A stretch of 57,492 nucleotides of DNA, from positions 1 through 57,492 of the forward strand of contig CAYHGT010000004.1 of the NCBI GenBank assembly GCA_964356375.1, read 5' to 3'. The notes under the pieces are model-generated. The model worked only from the letters and a program-made list of their open reading frames with translations. It did no database searches and had not been told where the DNA came from. A program made the position numbers and the translations under genes. Positions within the stretch are counted from its first letter, which is position 1; each line of letters begins with the position of its first letter. Source of the DNA: an uncultured Candidatus Saccharibacteria bacterium. Lineage in GTDB: Bacteria > Patescibacteriota > Minisyncoccia > UBA6257 > GWB1-50-10. Of the stretch, positions 3,609 to 50,251 are shown in pieces.

Positions 3609-3617
3609 ATACTAATT

Positions 3618-3771
3618 ATACCACGCCTGCACATACGCGCTTCTGCGCTTTAGTGCTTCCTACGTTCGCACTGCTGTGCTCAGTACTTCCTCGCTCACGC
3701 TCGGTCGTCGCTCTCGCTCGGTCGCTGTTTTGGCATTTCCTCACTCACGTTCGGTCATACCACGCCTACAC
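3618..3771 (+). mobile_element. GC-rich ~125-nt insertion flanked by a 15-nt direct repeat (MITE-like)
   Basis: ATACCACGCCTGCAC (3618..3632) and ATACCACGCCTACAC (3757..3771) flank a GC-rich low-complexity element. The element core recurs at 53282..53381. Confidence 0.45.
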
Positions 3772-24953: not shown

Positions 24954-25053
24954 ATAGTATATTTGCTTTGTTTTGTGTTTACTTTGTTCTTCGACCTTTT
25001 ATCACTTATAATTATATCATACCGAACACTAAGAATCGGCTTACAATAATATT

Positions 25054-42230: not shown

Positions 42231-42240
42231 TTTTGTTTTG

Positions 42241-42311
42241 TGGACCCAGCGAGAATCGAACTCGCGCCTGCGCAATGCGAATGCGCCATAATACCACTTT
42301 ACTATGGGCCC
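42241..42311 (-). tRNA. tRNA-Ala: tRNA-Ala (anticodon CGC)
   Basis: A manual cloverleaf fold works: acceptor GGGCCCA/TGGGTCC with G3:U70, anticodon loop TTCGCAT, T-loop GTTCGATTC. No CCA is encoded. Confidence 0.85.
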
Positions 42312-42369: not shown

Positions 42370-44124
42370 CTATTCTCCTTTTAGATTTTTCAGCTCATCC
42401 AACTCCGATTTAATATCTTTTTCTATTGTTTTGATATCTCCCGCAAGATGTTTATACTGTTTGTTATTTGTATGCCTGCCTGCGCCCGATGACGATTCTT
42501 TTGTTTCGCGTAAATCTTTTTCAACGTGTTGAAGGTCGGAATCTAATTTTTCCTCAAACTTCTTCACATCGCCAAAAAATCTCTTGCGCATCTTGAGTAA
42601 GCGCGAATAGAAATATATTGCAACCGCGATAATCAATCCAAGCGCAATAATCATTGCCATTCCAATAATGCCGTACTCCCCAATACTTGCGAGCATATTG
42701 GACAGCCAACCCCCAACCTTAACCTGCTTCTGCTCACTTTCCTCGCTACGAGCGCCACGATCGTCTGCAAGATATGCCGAGAGTAAATATTCACCCGCGG
42801 TAAGCCTATCAGAAATCGTTATTGCCCACGTACCATCGTTATTTATAGGAACCTCAAACACATTGCTGTTACTCCCACCGCGCAACAACACTGCTATGCG
42901 CTTAGTAAACGCCACAACATATTTAGGAACAAATCCGCTTATCAATAACGGTTTTTGTGGCGGACTCACATTATAACTATAGGAAGTTATCTCGGGAGCC
43001 TGAAGTGGCTTGATATCAACTTGAAGTAGTCCATCAGTATAATTGCGAGCACTGTCGTATGCACGCACCAAAATAAGATGGCTTCCCGGCAAAAGCGCAG
43101 GCACAATATATACATTGCCACGCTTTAGCGGTCCCGCATCAATGATTGCTCCACTATCAATACTAATGGTATATCCGCTAATCGGAGAGGTTGTATCTGT
43201 CGTATTGAATGAGAGCGCAGGACTTGGATTGGTGGGGTCATCCTTATCCACGCGCACAACTGCAAATGGCTTCGGCTCCGAAAAATCCATAAGCACTGCG
43301 CGCGAAGCGGATGGTCCCCACCCATTTTTGTTATGCAGTCGCACATAGAAATACCATATCCCGTCCTTGTACTTTGAGAGATCGTACGCGACACTATCAA
43401 TGAGTCCCTTGCTCATGGGCGAAAGATAATAATTGGAATCCCTTACAAGCGCGTACGCGACGCCATCCACATCGCTTGCCAAATTCCAGGACATTTCAAA
43501 TGATTTTGATGCATACCACGCGCGCTCATTTGAATACGTTCTAGAAAAAAACAGGGGGGCGTCGGGAACACCAAACGCCTGAGCGGGAATTTCTCCCTTT
43601 GGTGTTGGCAAATCTGCGGATCGTGATGCCACACTAATCTGATATGTGGGCTCCTGATTGAATGATATAATATTCGTTCCAAACCCGTTATTTGCAAGAA
43701 TAGCACCATCTGTAACTTTAAGTTTTGCAATTCCAGAACCGAGCGCTTGAAATGTAATTGAAAAAGCGGTTCCGCTTGAGCCAGTAAATCCCGGCGTGGG
43801 AAGTCCTCCGCTGAATATTATAGTGCCATCTATATTAGAATATGTTGGATCCTGAACCCAAAACTTGAAAATGGAGTTCGCTTTTGAAACGCTTGTGACC
43901 TTGAGCAACTTCGTGGGGAAAGATATTGTCGCATCTGCGGCATTTATGGCGTTTCCTTTTGTGTCAATTGAGACCGTAACCAAAATAGTAGAACCGCTCA
44001 TGTATGCTCCGCTTGTAGGAGTAAACACGAACCCTGCGCCGGAATCGCTTTGCGCGCGAGAAATAAGCGGCGCATACGTCGCTAACAAAACAAAGAACAG
44101 AAAAAATGTTAGTTTCTTCGCCAC
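42370..44124 (-). CDS. Cohesin-like domain surface protein with C-terminal TM anchor and cytoplasmic coiled coil
   Basis: 584 aa with a signal peptide and a cohesin-like N-domain (GSTILVTVSIDTKGNAINAADATISFP...IIFSGGLPTPGFTG). An Ig-like module with SPISGYTISID...VRAYDSARN follows, then a TM helix and a KE-rich tail. Confidence 0.7.
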   Translation of the reverse strand: MAKKLTFFLFFVLLATYAPLISRAQSDSGAGFVFTPTSGAYMSGSTILVTVSIDTKGNAINAADATISFPTKLLKVTSVSKANSIFKFWVQDPTYSNIDGTIIFSGGLPTPGFTGSSGTAFSITFQALGSGIAKLKVTDGAILANNGFGTNIISFNQEPTYQISVASRSADLPTPKGEIPAQAFGVPDAPLFFSRTYSNERAWYASKSFEMSWNLASDVDGVAYALVRDSNYYLSPMSKGLIDSVAYDLSKYKDGIWYFYVRLHNKNGWGPSASRAVLMDFSEPKPFAVVRVDKDDPTNPSPALSFNTTDTTSPISGYTISIDSGAIIDAGPLKRGNVYIVPALLPGSHLILVRAYDSARNYTDGLLQVDIKPLQAPEITSYSYNVSPPQKPLLISGFVPKYVVAFTKRIAVLLRGGSNSNVFEVPINNDGTWAITISDRLTAGEYLLSAYLADDRGARSEESEQKQVKVGGWLSNMLASIGEYGIIGMAMIIALGLIIAVAIYFYSRLLKMRKRFFGDVKKFEEKLDSDLQHVEKDLRETKESSSGAGRHTNNKQYKHLAGDIKTIEKDIKSELDELKNLKGE

Positions 44125-44855
44125 TTATATACAGTATATACCAATGCTAAGATTATTACTGCGCCGATTGCCACTGCGTATAACTGAATATTCAAAACTG
44201 TGATTAATGTAGATATTGACTCGGTTCGCGCATTCCCAGCACTGTCATATGCGCGAATCTCAAGCGTGGTAACGTCTGAATTTATCACATACGGACTCTC
44301 CGCATTCCTCCAATCGCCCATGCCCCTCGCAGTTGTTTCTCTAACCTCGTATTTTTGGATACCAGAATCCAAATCGCGCGCGGAAAATATCACAACAGGA
44401 TTACTGCCAAATACTGTTGCGTCGCGATAGATTTCTGGCGTAAATGGCTCTGGAGGAACGGTGTCACGAGAGTAGGACGAGGATGCGTATGAAACATTCG
44501 CATTTGGAACAAATGAAATACCTACTACTCCCACCTCTGTTCCCTTCCCATCACTCAAATAAAGCGCGGTATCGTTGGAAAATGAAAGTGAAGAAACTGG
44601 TGTGCGAAGTGTAAAGCGGAAAATAACCATATCGCCCGTAAATCCATTCGGCAAACCACCCGCGAATTGAATTCCCCCCGCCCCAACGCTCGGAATTGTT
44701 TTCCAAATTATTCCATCGCTATCTTTCATAAGGATTGACGCGATTGCGTTTGTATCGGCCATCTCTACAACCCCACTCCATGCGTTTACCGCCATATCAG
44801 TTTTGGCGTGCACCGCGATTATATTTCCATTTTGTTCAAAATAAAAATTGGTCAT
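44109..44855 (-). CDS. Cohesin-like domain protein, C-terminally TM-anchored, no recognisable signal peptide
   Basis: The ORF extends to 44903; ATG at 44855 gives MTNFYFEQNG. Contains GGIQFAGGLPNGFTGDMVIFRF and SGIQKYEVRE...IRAYDSAGN, paralogous to 42370..44124. Overlaps that gene's start by 16 nt. Confidence 0.65.
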   Translation of the reverse strand: MTNFYFEQNGNIIAVHAKTDMAVNAWSGVVEMADTNAIASILMKDSDGIIWKTIPSVGAGGIQFAGGLPNGFTGDMVIFRFTLRTPVSSLSFSNDTALYLSDGKGTEVGVVGISFVPNANVSYASSSYSRDTVPPEPFTPEIYRDATVFGSNPVVIFSARDLDSGIQKYEVRETTARGMGDWRNAESPYVINSDVTTLEIRAYDSAGNARTESISTLITVLNIQLYAVAIGAVIILALVYTVYKWRRN

Positions 44856-44862
44856 GTGTATA

Positions 44863-45915
44863 TTATCCGGTCCAGTTATAAAGCAAAATACTGAAATCAA
44901 CAATGTTCACTTTTCCATCGTGGTTAAAATCCGATACCGCAAACGCGGATTTTGTTGATTTATTCCAGTTATAAAGCAAAATACTGAAATCAACCATATT
45001 CACGCGTCCGTCCTTTGTAACATCTCCCGAAATATTTTTTCCTACTGTTTTTGTTCCAACCTGAAATGAGACTGATTGCGAATCGGATGAGATAAGACTA
45101 TCGGAAAGTGCGGCCTGACTTTTCACTGTGTGGTTTCCCAACTCAAGAACACTGGTATCAAATATATATGTATACTTTCCCTTAATATCAGATATCACAT
45201 CTTTCATAATTTCGTTTGCGGAATTTATTACAATGCTCACGGTACTTGAGGGAGCGGTCTGACCAGTAATGGTAAGCATATCTCCCCTTCTTACTTCCGA
45301 TTTATCAACCTCAATAATCGGCGCCAAGAAAATACCAGACACCGCCGCAACCGTACCTGAATTCAAAGAGAGCGTAAACGTAAACGCGAGAGAGCGCCTT
45401 CCCCTTATATCAGTAGAATAGACGCCGAAATGACGAACCCCAACCGGCGCCTCAATCGTTTTAGAAAATAACGCCCCCGCATCCGCGGTCACGCTTGCTA
45501 CAAATGCGCCATCCAAAAGAATATTGACCTTGCTTACGGGATAAGCCATTCCCGAAATATTCACACTAAGCGTTTGGGAAAACTGCGGTGGCGCGACATA
45601 TACGCCTCCCCCGCCTCCCCCTCCGCCACCACCAGACGACGCTGGTGTCGCCGAAGTACACGCCGATGTATTAAAAGTACAATTTACATTACAACTCAAC
45701 GTCCCCGCTGAAAATCCACGAGTGACGCAGGTTTGGCTCTTCAAATCCGTTCCATCACACTGCTCATTCCACTCCGCAACCCCGTTGCTACAAACACCAT
45801 TCACTTGAGCGGTGATGGTTACCGATTGCGCTAAAGATAGGGAAGGAAATAAAAAATATGGCAGAACGGAAAAAAAAGATGAGACAAGAAAATAAAAAAC
45901 GAACAAGAACTTCAT
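44863..45915 (-). CDS. Secreted Cys-rich-repeat / Ig-like protein with two C-terminal dockerin-type repeats
   Basis: 350 aa with a signal peptide. Has CSNGVAEWNEQCDGTD...C (Myxococcus-type Cys-rich repeat), a G11 linker, and the dockerin-like repeats DVTKDGRVNMVDFSILLYNW and SDFNHDGKVNIVDFSILLYNW. Confidence 0.75.
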   Translation of the reverse strand: MKFLFVFYFLVSSFFSVLPYFLFPSLSLAQSVTITAQVNGVCSNGVAEWNEQCDGTDLKSQTCVTRGFSAGTLSCNVNCTFNTSACTSATPASSGGGGGGGGGGVYVAPPQFSQTLSVNISGMAYPVSKVNILLDGAFVASVTADAGALFSKTIEAPVGVRHFGVYSTDIRGRRSLAFTFTLSLNSGTVAAVSGIFLAPIIEVDKSEVRRGDMLTITGQTAPSSTVSIVINSANEIMKDVISDIKGKYTYIFDTSVLELGNHTVKSQAALSDSLISSDSQSVSFQVGTKTVGKNISGDVTKDGRVNMVDFSILLYNWNKSTKSAFAVSDFNHDGKVNIVDFSILLYNWTG

Positions 45916-45948
45916 CTGTTTTATAATACCATTAGAGAGCGTTACTTT

Positions 45949-46878
45949 CTACTTTCTCGCCTTGCCGATAATCCACGCATTGTATTTTTTTATTCCTCTC
46001 GGAATCACAAGGAACATGAGAGCCAAAAAGATAATAAGGGTAATAAGCGTTCCCCACGGCAAGATAAAAAACCAAACATTCTTGGTTACTGTTTGTTGTT
46101 GGGTACCATAATTCAGCTCCAGCGTCGCTCTGTAGGGACCGAAGAAAAATCCATTTGGATTGAAAGTAATATTGAAGCTTTTACTCACTTGAGGGAATAT
46201 ATTTGAACCAAACTCGTTCACGGGGGCCTCCATTACAGTGCCACCAAAGAGATTTTTTATTTTCAGCGTGCCCGCTGGCTTCAAATATGAATTACCGCTA
46301 TTTTCAAAAATGATAGAAAAATTAAGAGGAATGGATGTAAAAAATCTAGTGGAAGGGTAAAAATCTTTAATTGAACCAGCTTCTTTTATATCACCCGAAA
46401 CAGTAAGATACACTAAAATACCCGCCCGCGTTACGATTGAAACCTGACCCCTCTCTCCTTTTGGCGGTGAAGAGCTCCACCAAATAACCGCGAAATGACC
46501 GCCAGGCGGAGCATTTTTTGGAACACGAACAGTGAAGGGAATTTGACGCGATTCTTTAGATTGCAAGGTAATGGAGGGGGCAATATTAAACCACGCGGAG
46601 AGGTCGCTTTCTTCTTTAGTAAAGTTTTTTTGCCCGCTGGAATTTTCCGTAAATCTTTCAAAAGAGGGGTACAGTTTTTGAGTAACCAAGCCTTCGTTCT
46701 GAAGAAAGAGTTCGCCTTTTAACGTTTTCCCCGGATCTACACTATATTCCAATTTTACAGGCCCCACCGTAACCGCGTGTGAAATTGTAGGCAAAATAAG
46801 AAATCCAATCCCAACTATTAGGGAAATGAATAGGGTGAGAACGAAGTGCCTTGAAAGATTTTTATTCATTCTAATCAC
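45949..46878 (-). CDS. DUF916/DUF3324 (CscA)-like two-Ig-domain protein with C-terminal TM anchor
   Basis: 309 aa with a signal peptide. Contains VTVGPVKLEY...GELFLQNEG, VPKNAPPGGHFAVIWW and a second beta domain, then the C-terminal TM LITLIIFLALMFLVI. The family call rests on pattern only. Confidence 0.6.
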   Translation of the reverse strand: MIRMNKNLSRHFVLTLFISLIVGIGFLILPTISHAVTVGPVKLEYSVDPGKTLKGELFLQNEGLVTQKLYPSFERFTENSSGQKNFTKEESDLSAWFNIAPSITLQSKESRQIPFTVRVPKNAPPGGHFAVIWWSSSPPKGERGQVSIVTRAGILVYLTVSGDIKEAGSIKDFYPSTRFFTSIPLNFSIIFENSGNSYLKPAGTLKIKNLFGGTVMEAPVNEFGSNIFPQVSKSFNITFNPNGFFFGPYRATLELNYGTQQQTVTKNVWFFILPWGTLITLIIFLALMFLVIPRGIKKYNAWIIGKARK

Positions 46879-46957
46879 AAAAAACCAACTCCATTACTAT
46901 ACATTGAACGTGTCGGAAAGTAAATAAAACGAGCAATTGATTTAAATTACATTACTA

Positions 46958-47605
46958 CTAATTACCCGCACAACTATACGTAATTGTATCAGTGTAACTT
47001 GCCGCCTGCGTGATACCACTTATCGCCGCTTTGTGTCGCACCACAACCTCACGGGCACTGATTGACGCCGTAGATGAAGCAAGAGTAAGAGTTGAGGTGG
47101 TTAATCCACCAACCGTATTCCCGGTAAAAGTCTGAAGATACCTTGTTGCTATACCAAGCGTTCCGCCACTTCCAACCGCGGTCGTGGTAGCCATAACGCC
47201 ATACCCTTCAGTTCCCGCGACTAATGTTGCGCTGGCAGCAAAAGCGCCATTGGGAGAAGGAATTAAATATGCCGGACTGCTAGTAGAAAGACCTCCGTTT
47301 ACTGTATTACCCGCATCGTTAATAGAGAGGGTGCAACCAGTGCCAACATTGCAAGACATAGTTGTAGAGGCGTTCAGAGTGGACGTAGTTATTGCTCCAG
47401 AAGTTAATGTTCCAAAAGAAGTTGAGGTATTGTCGGTTGCACAAGTAATGCTTGAACCTACTGTAGCACTAACAGTAACAGTGGCTCCATACACCATGCC
47501 AGTTGAAGAATACAAAAACACGACCGCTACAGTCAGAACACACACACCCACATAATACGCTTTCTCTAAATTCACACTTCCAAATCTTTGTTTTATTGAA
47601 TTCAT
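46958..47605 (-). CDS. Secreted fimbrial-type (SCPU/WxL-like) beta-sandwich subunit
   Basis: 215 aa with a signal anchor ending VYGA. The mature part is TVTVSATVGSSITC...FGTL...MSC...C and the C-terminus is AASYTDTITYSCAGN. The whole mature part is homologous to the C-terminus of 47702..49513. Confidence 0.6.
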   Translation of the reverse strand: MNSIKQRFGSVNLEKAYYVGVCVLTVAVVFLYSSTGMVYGATVTVSATVGSSITCATDNTSTSFGTLTSGAITTSTLNASTTMSCNVGTGCTLSINDAGNTVNGGLSTSSPAYLIPSPNGAFAASATLVAGTEGYGVMATTTAVGSGGTLGIATRYLQTFTGNTVGGLTTSTLTLASSTASISAREVVVRHKAAISGITQAASYTDTITYSCAGN

Positions 47606-47701
47606 ATTTTTTTTATTTAATTGACCTTCATATCAACTTCTTTAGTATATGCACAGTATACCAAATCCGTATATAGATTGCTGTGTATAACTCTGATTGG
47701 T

Positions 47702-49513
47702 TTAAGGATTCCCAATACAACTGTAGGTAATCGTATCGGTATAACTGCCGGCTTGGGTCATGGTGCTAATCGCTGCTTTATGTCTTACCACCACTTCCCG
47801 GTTGGTAACCGCCGCGGTGGAAGACGCGAGCGTCTGATTCGCGATAGCCAACTTGCCGACCGTATTGGTGTTGAATGAATTATAAATGGAGTTAAACCCA
47901 AGCGTTCCACCGGAACCTGTCGCGGTTGACGTCGCTTGTATGCCGTATCCTTCCGTTCCAGCCGTAAGTGTCGCTGTCGTGGGGAATCCAGAGGCGGGCG
48001 AAGGGATGAGATAGGCGGGAGTTGTGGTCGCGAGTCCCCCGTTCACGCCGTTGCCGGCGTCCAAAACCGAAAGGGTGCAACCCAAGGCGCCGCTGCAAGT
48101 CATCGTGGATGAAGCGTCCGCCGTGGAAGTGATTATTGACGCGCCGGATAATGTGCCGAAAGCGGTGGAAGTGATGTTGGTGGAGCACGAAACGGTCACG
48201 GCCGCGGCAGTGGTGATTTGGGGAATGACGGTATAAGTGTTCAAAACCGTGCCATCGGATTTTACTGCACGCAAACAATAGGCAGTGCTTGCCGTAGCGC
48301 CGTTGTCAAAAAGCGAGAAATCCCATTTGCCGTCTTGGGTCGCGGGAATAGCCGCCACGGAATTAGTGAAGTTATTTAACTCCTCGTAGGTTTGATTGAC
48401 AATCGTATCCGCGCCGTGAGTCGGGTCATTGGCGTTAGCGGTCAGAGTCGCGCCGTCAGCTGGTGTCGCGTTATCTTTATATGCGATCACGGTCGCGGCG
48501 GTAACATCGGCATAGGTCTCGCCGACAAATCCGGTATCACAGGTACCGGACTGCTGAGCAAACTGGAGCTTGAATTGCTGGCCGCTTACGATAAGTTGAT
48601 TCGCGCCGATATGCAAAAGCGTTCTCAAACGAAACGCCGCGCCGGCCGAACCCAAAGTCGCGGCCGTGTCCTGCACCGCCAGCGCCGTCCCCACATCAGT
48701 GGAATCCAAATTATTAAACAGGCGATAGGTGGCTTGGTTGTATGTCGGCGGTTCCGGTTTAAGAGCCAGTACTATGCCGCCTGCGCCAACTGGAATTGCC
48801 GTATTCCAGTTAACCGAAACATTTCCGGTGGCGCCGGCGGTTGTCCGAGCCGCCTCACTAAACGTAACAACTCCGTCCGCGCCCGTAGTTGATTCTACAT
48901 AATGTTCGGTGTAAGCTGCCGGATCGGTTCCTGTTGTTATAATGGACGCGTTATTGTTGTCCTCACCAGGAACCGCCGCCACTACCAGCGAGTTATCGGT
49001 GAGCGTTGTAATTCCGGTGAACACTGACGGGTCAACGGCCGTGGTGCCAGCCGTTCCTTTGACCTCCCATGGGTCACCGGTCGTAATTGCCCCGCTAAAA
49101 ATAATAACAGCGGCGTAGGTCTCGCCGGTCGTGGTGTTTTTATCTACCAGAGGATTTGTTTCTGCGCTGGATGCTGCCCGTTTCCAAGCCCACCAGTAGC
49201 GAGCAGTCGTGCCGCGATCCACTGTCGCGATTTGCGCCCAGCCGGTGGGCCAAGTAATCGTGTCATTTACATCGCGGACAATAACCCCAATCAGCATAAT
49301 ATCATTGGTCGCGTGGGTCCCAAGCGTCACTGTTACATCCACTCCAGTGCTTGCCGCAATGGCGCTGAATGATTTGAAAGCAGGCGCTGGCGCTTGCGCG
49401 TGCGCTTTTTGAATTTCAGGAGGGAAATTGAAAATCTGTGGCCAGCCGGAAAAGACCCAGGTCGTGGCAATAATTAATATCAAAATAAATTGTCCTGTTT
49501 TCTTTACACTCAT
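47702..49513 (-). CDS. Large secreted protein carrying the same C-terminal fimbrial-type domain
   Basis: The ORF extends to 49537; ATG at 49513 (MSVKKTGQFILILII) forms an ATGA overlap with the upstream stop. It ends AGSYTDTITYSCIGNP. The gene is visibly more GC-rich than its neighbours. Confidence 0.7.
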   Translation of the reverse strand: MSVKKTGQFILILIIATTWVFSGWPQIFNFPPEIQKAHAQAPAPAFKSFSAIAASTGVDVTVTLGTHATNDIMLIGVIVRDVNDTITWPTGWAQIATVDRGTTARYWWAWKRAASSAETNPLVDKNTTTGETYAAVIIFSGAITTGDPWEVKGTAGTTAVDPSVFTGITTLTDNSLVVAAVPGEDNNNASIITTGTDPAAYTEHYVESTTGADGVVTFSEAARTTAGATGNVSVNWNTAIPVGAGGIVLALKPEPPTYNQATYRLFNNLDSTDVGTALAVQDTAATLGSAGAAFRLRTLLHIGANQLIVSGQQFKLQFAQQSGTCDTGFVGETYADVTAATVIAYKDNATPADGATLTANANDPTHGADTIVNQTYEELNNFTNSVAAIPATQDGKWDFSLFDNGATASTAYCLRAVKSDGTVLNTYTVIPQITTAAAVTVSCSTNITSTAFGTLSGASIITSTADASSTMTCSGALGCTLSVLDAGNGVNGGLATTTPAYLIPSPASGFPTTATLTAGTEGYGIQATSTATGSGGTLGFNSIYNSFNTNTVGKLAIANQTLASSTAAVTNREVVVRHKAAISTMTQAGSYTDTITYSCIGNP

Positions 49514-50223
49514 AGATTGATGACATTTATCTGGCAAATTGTTGTAGAATTCCCGCTGGCATAAATAATTGGAACGCTGAAATTTCCCTTTTGCGAACCG
49601 GGCTGGTTGGTAATTTGCAAAACCGCTCCACTGTCGCTTTTTTGAGAAGAGAACGAATAGCTGGCGTTGTTTAAAAATGTAATATCAATACCCAACGGCA
49701 AACTGCCGATTTCAATATCCTCGGTGTCGCTCCGCGAACCGGTCAGTTCAAGTTCAATAATGACCCGGTCTTGAGCCGAAAGATTGACGCTAAAACTCTT
49801 TGCCTGGCAGGAATGACGCGCGTTTTTATCAAGCCGGACATCCCCATTAAATTTTCTTTCTTTAAGCGGTGGAGGAGGCGGTGCGAATATAGGCGCTTCT
49901 TCCGTCTGGATTTCTTCTGTTTGAGTTTCTTCCCCTACTTGCGCTTTCGTTGAAGTCGCCGTCACCTCTTGGCCCGACAAGCCAGATGGTGTTGTAGTAG
50001 CGGTGCTTGTCGCCGCTTCTTGCGTCGCGGTCGTTTGCGACGACGTCGCAGTTTGCAATTCAGGAGGAGTGGAAGTCGCCGCCCGCGGCGTGGAGGTTGC
50101 CTCCTGGGCGTACAGTAAAATCCATGGTTGTCCAAAAAAAGTCCAGCCAAAAATCACCGCAAAAATAAGCAGAAATCTACTTGTTTTAACAATTTTACTT
50201 TTCCACAGTTTTGGATTTGACAT
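49510..50223 (-). CDS. Membrane-anchored Thr/Ser/Glu-rich surface protein, first gene of the operon
   Basis: 237 aa with a signal anchor, a T/S/E-rich linker, a PPPPP stretch and a beta-rich C-domain of about 120 aa. An extended -10 box lies 19 nt upstream of the ATG. Confidence 0.65.
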   Translation of the reverse strand: MSNPKLWKSKIVKTSRFLLIFAVIFGWTFFGQPWILLYAQEATSTPRAATSTPPELQTATSSQTTATQEAATSTATTTPSGLSGQEVTATSTKAQVGEETQTEEIQTEEAPIFAPPPPPLKERKFNGDVRLDKNARHSCQAKSFSVNLSAQDRVIIELELTGSRSDTEDIEIGSLPLGIDITFLNNASYSFSSQKSDSGAVLQITNQPGSQKGNFSVPIIYASGNSTTICQINVINL

Positions 50224-50242: not shown

Positions 50243-50251
50243 ATTATATCA
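50243..50251 (-). promoter_or_regulatory. Extended -10 promoter TGATATAAT for the surface-protein operon
   Basis: On the minus strand it ends 19 nt before ATG 50223. There is no Shine-Dalgarno sequence in the short leader. Confidence 0.5.

Follow-up and report, generated by a model that had tools for sequence, protein, structure and literature searches.

Contig CAYHGT010000004.1 of an uncultured Candidatus Saccharibacteria bacterium (assembly GCA_964356375.1) was analysed as a single stretch of 57,492 nucleotides (nt), hereafter the window. At 42370-50223 it carries a cluster of seven open reading frames (ORFs), all on the minus strand and all read in the same direction. From the upstream end these are g1 (49510-50223, 237 amino acids, aa), g2 (47702-49513, 603 aa counted from an ATG at 49513), g3 (46958-47605, 215 aa), g4 (45949-46878, 309 aa), g5 (44863-45915, 350 aa), g6 (44109-44855, 248 aa from a corrected start) and g7 (42370-44124, 584 aa). 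Their products include two proteins with a common pilin-like domain, a membrane protein with two immunoglobulin (Ig) domains, a secreted dockerin protein and two cohesin-like membrane proteins. The parts are of known kinds; their combination, and the anchoring logic that we infer from it, are new.

A first-pass annotation of this DNA had described the seven genes as co-directional, with tight or overlapping junctions, behind an extended -10 box, and this layout was confirmed, with the corrections given below. With the ATG at 49513 adopted as the start of g2, that gene forms an ATGA overlap with the stop codon of g1 (49510-49513); the ORF lister had begun g2 at a TTG at 49537, which underlies a 611-aa numbering. 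The ORFs of g6 and g7 overlap by 16 nt (44109-44124), and 7 nt separate the stop of g5 from the corrected ATG of g6 at 44855. A start for g6 at the TTG at 44903 was rejected: its 'LISVFCFITG' is an off-frame reading of the duplicated dockerin repeat of g5. The extended -10-like box, TGATATAAT, read directly at 50243-50251 on the minus strand, stands 20 nt 5′ of the g1 ATG, immediately beyond the stop codon of the NYN-domain gene that lies upstream, and is the putative promoter of the cluster; no -35 box goes with it. The gaps between g2 and g3 (96 nt) and between g3 and g4 (79 nt) contain promoter-like boxes, for example TGGTATACT 5′ of g3, so that internal promoters before g3 and g4 are possible. 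For this reason we call it likely, and not more, that the seven genes form a single operon.

Component proteins of the cluster

The domain that the first-pass annotation had seen in both g3 and the C-terminus of g2 is closely shared, with 63% identity over 164 aa (BLASTP, E 1e-62). In g3 it follows a signal peptide and an N-terminal strand motif. In g2 it occupies 47705-48196 on the minus strand (residues about 448-611 in the 611-aa numbering), behind a leader and a passenger region of ~400 aa, and the strand motif is missing. Homologues of g3 number more than 421; those with named sources come from Parcubacteria, Paceibacterota or Minisyncoccia, all entered as hypothetical proteins and none with a Pfam domain. 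When 1.84 billion representatives were searched with a profile, the shared domain was found in 710 clusters at 50% identity. Among the 150 best matches listed, it lies at or near the C-terminus of proteins ranging from 126 to 3576 aa.

Sequence searches of the Protein Data Bank (PDB) gave no significant match for g3, for g4 or for the profiles of their families; one weak line to WxLIP among the results was later borne out by Foldseek. The top PDB match that Foldseek returned for an AlphaFold2 (AF2) model of g3 (pLDDT 88.7) was the pilin CsuA/B (6fqa_B, probability 0.98, E 0.019, TM 0.35/0.52). CfaB, Caf1, FimG, PapE, FimA and PapA followed, mostly chaperone-usher pilins, and the list also includes the TasA fibre 8aur_A, the TasA-like 9ikj_A and the archaeal cannulae 9h8b (E 0.05-0.4). 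The sole Pfam family that recurs within the shared-domain family is SCPU (PF05229), matched weakly by 12/49 and 3/93 homologues; the best of these matches, in protein P0022, reaches 21.2 bits vs a cut-off of 22.4 (E 4e-4) and spans profile positions 2-136 of 138. When the g3 family was aligned by hhalign with a CsuA/B-family profile, the strand, Cys, FGTL and SCN motifs of the two proved colinear. That profile was built from a CsuA/B query 100% identical to 7zl4_A and 76 relatives, a narrow set drawn mostly from Acinetobacter.

The likeness to spore-coat-U and Csu pilins proposed earlier therefore stands as a weak structural resemblance with weak but recurrent SCPU matches, whereas membership of SCPU is not established. 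The shared domain is a new family with what appears to be a pilin-like fold, a member of SCPU by no threshold and possibly a very remote relative of it. A looser kinship with WxL surface domains, also suggested at first, has been dropped. PF13731 matched 0 of 142 family members (49 + 93), W-x-L motifs are absent, and an hhalign comparison with 10 WxL domains, taken from plasmid WxL loci, aligned 9 columns in the last strand only (E 0.56). We propose g3 as the repeating (major) subunit of the system.

For g2, with its passenger followed by a pilin-like domain, we propose the role of tip adhesin. The passengers of g2 orthologues are variable and include BNR, Kelch, fn3 and Gly_rich_2 domains. 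Large forms (window 49400-49513, and the related loci L020, L022 and L027) begin with an unusual conserved leader, ...GW(I/V)FSGWPxI(W/F)xNPxVPPEIQxAxA, to which the leader of g1 (50110-50180) is related (BLASTP E 0.002). Possibly this leader acts as a specialised signal for export or processing, of another kind than the signal peptides of g3-g5 and g7. The product of g1, which is secreted or anchored, continues from its signal-like leader into a T/S/A/P/E-rich linker and a C-terminal domain of ~115 aa, and matches no Pfam family. Its C-terminal domain recurs only at the C-termini of larger upstream genes in two related loci, L003 and L033 (E 1e-22). The gene g1 is peripheral and only partly conserved, and consequently the core of the cluster consists of the six genes g2-g7.

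The product of g4 has a signal peptide, two Ig (β-sandwich) domains and a C-terminal transmembrane (TM) helix at about residues 278-296, and belongs to a family of more than 274 proteins from the Candidate Phyla Radiation (CPR). Its AF2 model (pLDDT 91.8) is closest to the Enterococcus faecium WxLIP 9i1y_A (E 8e-13) and then to WxLIP 9i25_C (E 1e-11), the latter from an entry in which a WxLIP is bound to a long WxL protein. Next come the pilus chaperones CfaA, CsuC, YadV, Caf1M, EcpB and DraB (1e-9 to 1e-7). Profile comparison agrees: hhalign of the g4 family against seven annotated DUF916/DUF3324 WxLIPs gave a probability of 94.4% (E 8.7e-8, 235 columns), with negative cross-controls. In Pfam, WxLIP_PGBD is matched weakly by 43/52 g4 homologues (best E 3.5e-6) and WxLIP_HBD by 5/52; the window g4 itself scores 14.5 bits for WxLIP, under the gathering cut-off. 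Thus g4, chaperone-like in its fold, is a genuine if distant homologue of the WxLIPs, and both earlier readings of it, as a TM-anchored DUF916/DUF3324 (CscA) protein and as one resembling PapD, are upheld. Rather than scattering into unrelated folds, g3 is placed by Foldseek with donor-strand pilins, if weakly, and g4 with WxLIPs and chaperones. For Firmicutes, published work predicts that WxLIP contributes a hairpin by which its WxL partner's sandwich is completed (PMC10599100). The g4 model has a loop of low confidence at about residues 136-151, ahead of a conserved RAGILVYL strand. By analogy with these relatives, we propose that g4 may be a membrane-tethered chaperone.

The remaining three genes supply what appears to be an anchor. 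In the protein encoded by g5, a signal peptide is followed by the strand motif, a Cys-rich CGNG..GEQCDG module and a Gly linker, then by two Ig-like domains (Pfam Big_6 and Big_7) and, at the C-terminus, a type I dockerin. The dockerin, at 44884-45027 on the minus strand (PF00404, residues 297-344), holds two EF-hand-like Ca-binding repeats, DVTKDGRVNMVD and DFNHDGKVNIVD, both of which are conserved across 19 aligned orthologues. It clears the Pfam cut-off (Dockerin_1, E 4e-9, 36.9 bits vs 22.9), and the g5 family profile matches the PDB dockerins 2y3n_B and 1daq_A, so that the dockerin first read on this secreted protein is confirmed. We propose that g5 is the terminator of the fibre and its adaptor to the cell.

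The largest of the three, g7, encodes a type I membrane protein in which a signal peptide precedes a cohesin-like domain at the N-terminus (43687-44001, minus strand; residues 42-146; Pfam Cohesin, PF00963), an Ig-like stalk (Big_13), a TM helix at 485-503 and a cytoplasmic coiled-coil tail of ~80 aa. Its neighbour g6 encodes one cohesin-like and one Ig-like domain, with a TM helix at the C-terminus. The TM anchors of both and the coiled-coil tail of g7 are as originally described, and their cohesin-like character holds at the level of the families, the window g7 by itself falling under the Pfam cut-off. Among g7 orthologues, 7/15 match Cohesin (best 2e-10), the one in locus L001 with 35.2 bits across the full profile. 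The g6 family profile matches the Ruminococcus cohesin structures 5aoz_A and 5m2o_A (E 0.003-0.008), and hhalign joins the g6 and g7 families with a probability of 100% (E 2e-41), making g6 a short paralogue of g7. The g7 family profile, run against the PDB, found no cohesin and one Ig-domain match only. We propose g7 as the membrane anchor, or socket, for the g5 dockerin.

Two side observations concern these cohesin-like genes. Extra g7-like cohesin-stalk paralogues occur a few kb from the cluster in two related loci (L005:260-1417 and L003:44-1006, the latter on the minus strand). In the window, g6 is ~45 N-terminal residues shorter than most of its orthologues (for example that in L034) and is without the signal peptide and the first strand that they possess; its identity to the orthologue in the closest relative is 30%, against 74% for g4. 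The window g6 may be decaying or changed in role.

The N-terminal strand motif and conservation of the cluster

Small subunits carry the motif (T/A)VTV(S/T)A(T/S)V directly after the signal peptide; taken over small subunits and dockerin proteins together, it is summarised as (T/A)VTV(S/T)AxV. In g3 it reads ATVTVSATV (47459-47485, minus strand; residues 41-49) and is the proposed donor strand. Four of its residues (V43, V45, A47, V49) do not vary among 49 homologues, and it aligns positionally with the experimentally defined N-terminal donor strand of CsuA/B. The strict motif is present in 118 of 137 small forms, and one-residue variants occur in all the others except P0266, which is probably a fragment of a large form. 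Large forms do not have it (0/63), and the sequence preceding their domain is variable.

The motif appears in one further protein of the cluster. In g5 it reads QSVTITAQV (45802-45828, minus strand; residues 30-38) and opens the mature protein, where the Cys-rich module follows directly and no sandwich domain is present. Within the window, g3 and g5 are the only two matches among 131 ORFs in all frames. Over 21 loci, the motif was found in every g5 (21/21) and every small g3 (17/17), in none of the g4 (0/21), g6 (0/16) or g7 (0/22) proteins, and in 1 of 397 other ORFs.

As judged from these sequences, the cluster proteins fall into three states: domain with strand (g3), domain alone (g2-type) and strand alone (g5). 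Because the domain-only and strand-only states both exist, a first strand integral to the domain would be insufficient to account for the pattern, and complementation in trans would be sufficient. The three-way split suggests a donor-strand chain. Further, by sharing the motif of g3, g5 would tie the cohesin-dockerin part of the cluster mechanistically to its pilin part.

Three exact-protein look-ups and one genome-collection scan yielded about 20 independent loci, with protein identities of 37-75%, from Jorgensen-, Wolfe-, Lipton-, Brenner- and Portnoybacteria, Paceibacterota and Minisyncoccia. The order g2-g3-g4-g5-g6-g7 is kept wherever the contig is long enough, except in L003, where g6 is not followed by a g7-type gene and a g7-like ORF is found instead on the other strand, at the far end. 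The neighbourhood is thus strongly conserved in CPR genomes, as its first interpretation as a self-contained module had implied. Each locus has one small-subunit gene. The Parcubacteria genome KatS3mg095 has two, on different contigs, so that one genome may contain several systems of this kind.

Small genes of the 23S_rRNA_IVP / bAvd type were seen inside the cluster at differing positions in three loci (L003:4426-4800, L005:7388-7747 and L034:7975-8319), and are absent from the cluster in the window. Members of the bAvd family are, among other roles, accessory proteins of diversity-generating retroelements. All database entries for the cluster proteins read 'hypothetical protein', and in the literature we found no description of this gene cluster or of the shared-domain family, in keeping with the first-pass annotation, which likewise knew of no description of the combination.

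Assembly model and its alternatives

We propose that the cluster encodes a surface-fibre or adhesin module of Parcubacteria, assembled by β-strand complementation between subunits without an usher or a sortase. The assignments of the components are solid; as to the mechanism of assembly, we see the proposal as evenly balanced between right and wrong. On this model, Sec would export all components, and g2, which combines a variable passenger with a pilin-like domain and no strand, would become the distal tip adhesin. Copies of g3 would then be added, one or many times, each giving its N-terminal strand, xVTVSATV, to the previous subunit. The product of g5 would likewise give a strand and, because it possesses the strand and not the pilin domain, would offer no acceptor and so cap the chain at its proximal end. 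Its dockerin would plug into the distal cohesin of the membrane stalk formed by g7 and/or g6. Meanwhile, g4 would transiently complement subunits that have just been exported with a strand, and so cap their grooves. Held in the membrane, it would replace the soluble chaperone of other systems, tethering being called for because there is no periplasm to retain it.

An usher would be unnecessary since these cells have no outer membrane, and a sortase since the anchor would be non-covalent. The absence of both, as first noted, extends over everything scanned: neither the seven products nor ten other large window ORFs match any Pfam or NCBIfam family of ushers or sortases, an LPXTG-type motif (LPxT[GANS]) is found in 0/7 cluster products and in none of the same ten ORFs, and no usher genes were seen in the related loci.

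We would extend this proposal only tentatively, and with a degree of doubt, to a new type of pilus. This would be a chaperone-assisted, usher-free and sortase-free donor-strand fibre, with a dockerin terminator set in a TM cohesin stalk, and with hypervariable tips of up to 3,500 aa acting as the host-recognition adhesins of episymbionts. Such a pilus would form a link between Csu/SCPU pili and WxL complexes.

Several observations weigh against assembly by strand exchange and the proposed anchor. The pilin-fold matches of g3 are all weak, with the best at E 0.019 and none below 1e-3. In Pfam, the window g3, and likewise g2, has no SCPU match, and the best homologue falls just below the cut-off. 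The hhalign comparison of the g3 family with the CsuA/B-family profile is not significant (E 0.067). Residues 35-52 of g3 are not assigned as a strand in the monomer model, and the motif might be nothing more than the domain's own first strand, or else a signal for processing. On the side of the anchor, the Cohesin match of the window g7 is sub-threshold (19.9 bits vs a cut-off of 24.1), and the window g6 has no signal peptide.

The same proteins might instead build a non-polymerising platform of the WxL/Csc type. Here the large subunit, the small subunit and g4 would display the g2 passenger, g5-g7 would tether it, and no fibre would form; strand complementation, if any, would stabilise a fixed hetero-oligomer. 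The WxLIP homology of g4 and the single small-subunit gene per locus fit this reading, as does the small/large/WxLIP architecture shared with Firmicutes, for which the published model is a platform and not a fibre (PMC10599100, PMC9772566). Nevertheless, with 63% identity between the groove domains of g2 and g3, and with one motif in the strands of g3 and g5, there is no visible bar to the addition of g3 upon g3. In addition, the likeness of g3 in fold and profile is to polymerising pilins, not to WxL domains. We therefore rate a fixed platform as unlikely, though not strikingly so.

A sharper break with the fibre model would be to regard the cluster as two separate modules that travel together, an adhesin (g2-g4) and a cohesin-dockerin display (g5-g7), with the motif as a tag for signal peptidase, secretion or modification. 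This we consider improbable. The motif does lie right at the predicted signal-peptide cleavage site in g3 and g5, and non-cellulosomal cohesin-dockerin pairs occur independently of pili. However, the motif is not a general export tag of the cluster, since exported proteins are without it: the Sec-exported g2, g4 and g7, and g6, most of whose orthologues are exported, all score zero in the counts given above. Its V-x-V-x-A-x-V alternation is the pattern of a β-strand, and across about 20 loci the six genes always occur together.

A little more improbable still, in our estimation, is a self-assembling fibre like that of TasA and TapA, in which g3 would polymerise spontaneously, g5 would be a TapA-like nucleator or anchor that mimics the strand, and g4 would be an accessory that binds the wall or the host. 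TapA is reported to have a donor-strand-like N-terminus in common with TasA, and donor-strand fibres of monoderms and archaea are not known to need a chaperone. The structures 8aur_A, 9ikj_A and 9h8b do appear among the Foldseek matches of g3, but at E 0.05-0.4 and ranked under CsuA/B. No TasA/camelysin match was found in Pfam for the window products or the g3 homologues, and g4, which resembles pilus chaperones, is invariably present.

Genomic setting and relation to known systems

Upstream, the cluster is bounded by the NYN-domain gene, and downstream by a tRNA-Ala(CGC) gene at 42240-42311 on the minus strand (ARAGORN and Rfam), which lies outside it. The flanking genes are housekeeping genes, encoding UvrB, PPDK, P-type ATPases, the CCA-adding enzyme and NAD kinase. 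Rfam found no RNA elements within the cluster. The sequence TGNTATAAT occurs in 7 copies in the window vs 2.7 expected, several of them directly 5′ of gene starts, and the 7 include extended -10 boxes at 3615-3623, 16475-16483, 25011-25019 and 50243-50251. Two such boxes end 7 nt 5′ of a start codon, hinting at leaderless transcripts or very short leaders. The G+C content is 0.52 over positions 48001-50000 vs about 0.43-0.44 elsewhere. This is where g1 and g2 lie, whose coding is rich in Thr, Ala, Ser and Gly; the peak is probably a matter of composition and not a sign of foreign origin.

Of the systems already described, the nearest in its working is that of the WxL/Csc clusters of Firmicutes (Lactobacillales and Bacillales), to which the CPR cluster is also partly homologous. 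Those clusters pair a small protein with a large one that ends in the same domain, and add a WxLIP (PMC10599100, PMC9772566) and a small LPXTG protein. The CPR cluster has the same plan: a small single-domain protein, a large protein with variable passengers and that domain at its C-terminus, and a two-Ig TM protein, g4, homologous to the Firmicute WxLIP. Insertion of a strand from WxLIP into its partner is, moreover, predicted in Firmicutes. The differences are that the CPR shared domain is not WxL and has a terminal strand of TITYSC instead of TLTWxL, that a dockerin protein and two cohesin-like membrane proteins stand where an LPXTG protein or sortase substrate would be expected, and that the hosts are CPR bacteria, not Bacillota.

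A parallel may nonetheless exist within the Firmicute systems. In three WxL loci on Enterococcus plasmids (L007:4605-5751, L011:5576-6733 and L036:4555-5732), among the few loci examined, a small LPXTG protein has its mature N-terminus in common with the small WxL protein encoded next to it, with pairs such as DVRQVETNGTIGF with EVRDVTTDGKIEF and DVRQVETNGTIGFTG with EVRDVTTDGKIEFRPAG. By analogy, this suggests that the Enterococcus LPXTG protein could be a strand-only anchor like CPR g5, and that the two kinds of cluster may follow a common principle.

The archaic (sigma) chaperone-usher Csu pili of Acinetobacter offer the closest comparison for the pilin part. CsuA/B is the best structural match of g3, SCPU is the sole recurrent Pfam match, and g3 is colinear with CsuA/B in its N-terminal strand, Cys, FGTL and terminal Y-x-D-T-hydrophobic strand. 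The two-part tip, with a C-terminal pilin domain that has no N-terminal strand, is known from CsuE, FimH and PapG and is seen here as a sequence pattern, and the two-Ig helper g4 resembles CsuC, CfaA and Caf1M. In contrast to Csu pili, the CPR system has neither usher nor outer membrane, and would be anchored through cohesin and dockerin. Its helper g4 is membrane-anchored and closer to WxLIP, whereas the Csu chaperone is soluble and periplasmic, and the sequence similarity between the two systems lies under family thresholds.

The anchor part recalls the cellulosome in that a secreted protein ends in a Ca-binding dockerin of two repeats and that cell-bound stalks bear cohesin-like modules at their distal end. 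Unlike a cellulosome, the CPR cluster encodes no glycoside hydrolases or carbohydrate-binding modules, its anchor is a TM helix with a cytoplasmic coiled coil and not SLH domains or a sortase, and its dockerin protein bears a pilin-type N-terminal strand. The TapA-TasA system of Bacillus subtilis is likewise a donor-strand fibre of a monoderm with an N-terminal donor strand, has an anchoring accessory whose N-terminus is reported to mimic the strand of the subunit, and supplies the weak g3 match 8aur_A. It shows no sequence or Pfam relationship to the CPR proteins, however; TasA is not known to need an Ig-type chaperone, and the CPR cluster has no gene for a SipW-type peptidase.

Whatever the mode of assembly, five further families can now be annotated, along with the new domain family and its roughly 710 clusters (50% identity). 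If the proposed mechanism is true, donor-strand assembly with an Ig-type chaperone would extend to cells without an outer membrane, and cohesin-dockerin pairing would gain a role as a pilus anchor. The model also suggests how WxL clusters, long a puzzle in enterococci, listeriae and lactobacilli, might work. On the more doubtful reading of a new type of pilus, Csu/SCPU pili and the WxL complexes of Firmicutes would be linked in evolution and mechanism, and WxL clusters would likewise work by strand exchange, with their LPXTG protein as a strand-only anchor. For the CPR/Patescibacteria themselves, what is known of attachment to the host is largely limited to type IV pili. A cluster that is widespread in Parcubacteria, and that mounts variable passengers on a conserved chassis, is what a host-attachment organelle would look like.

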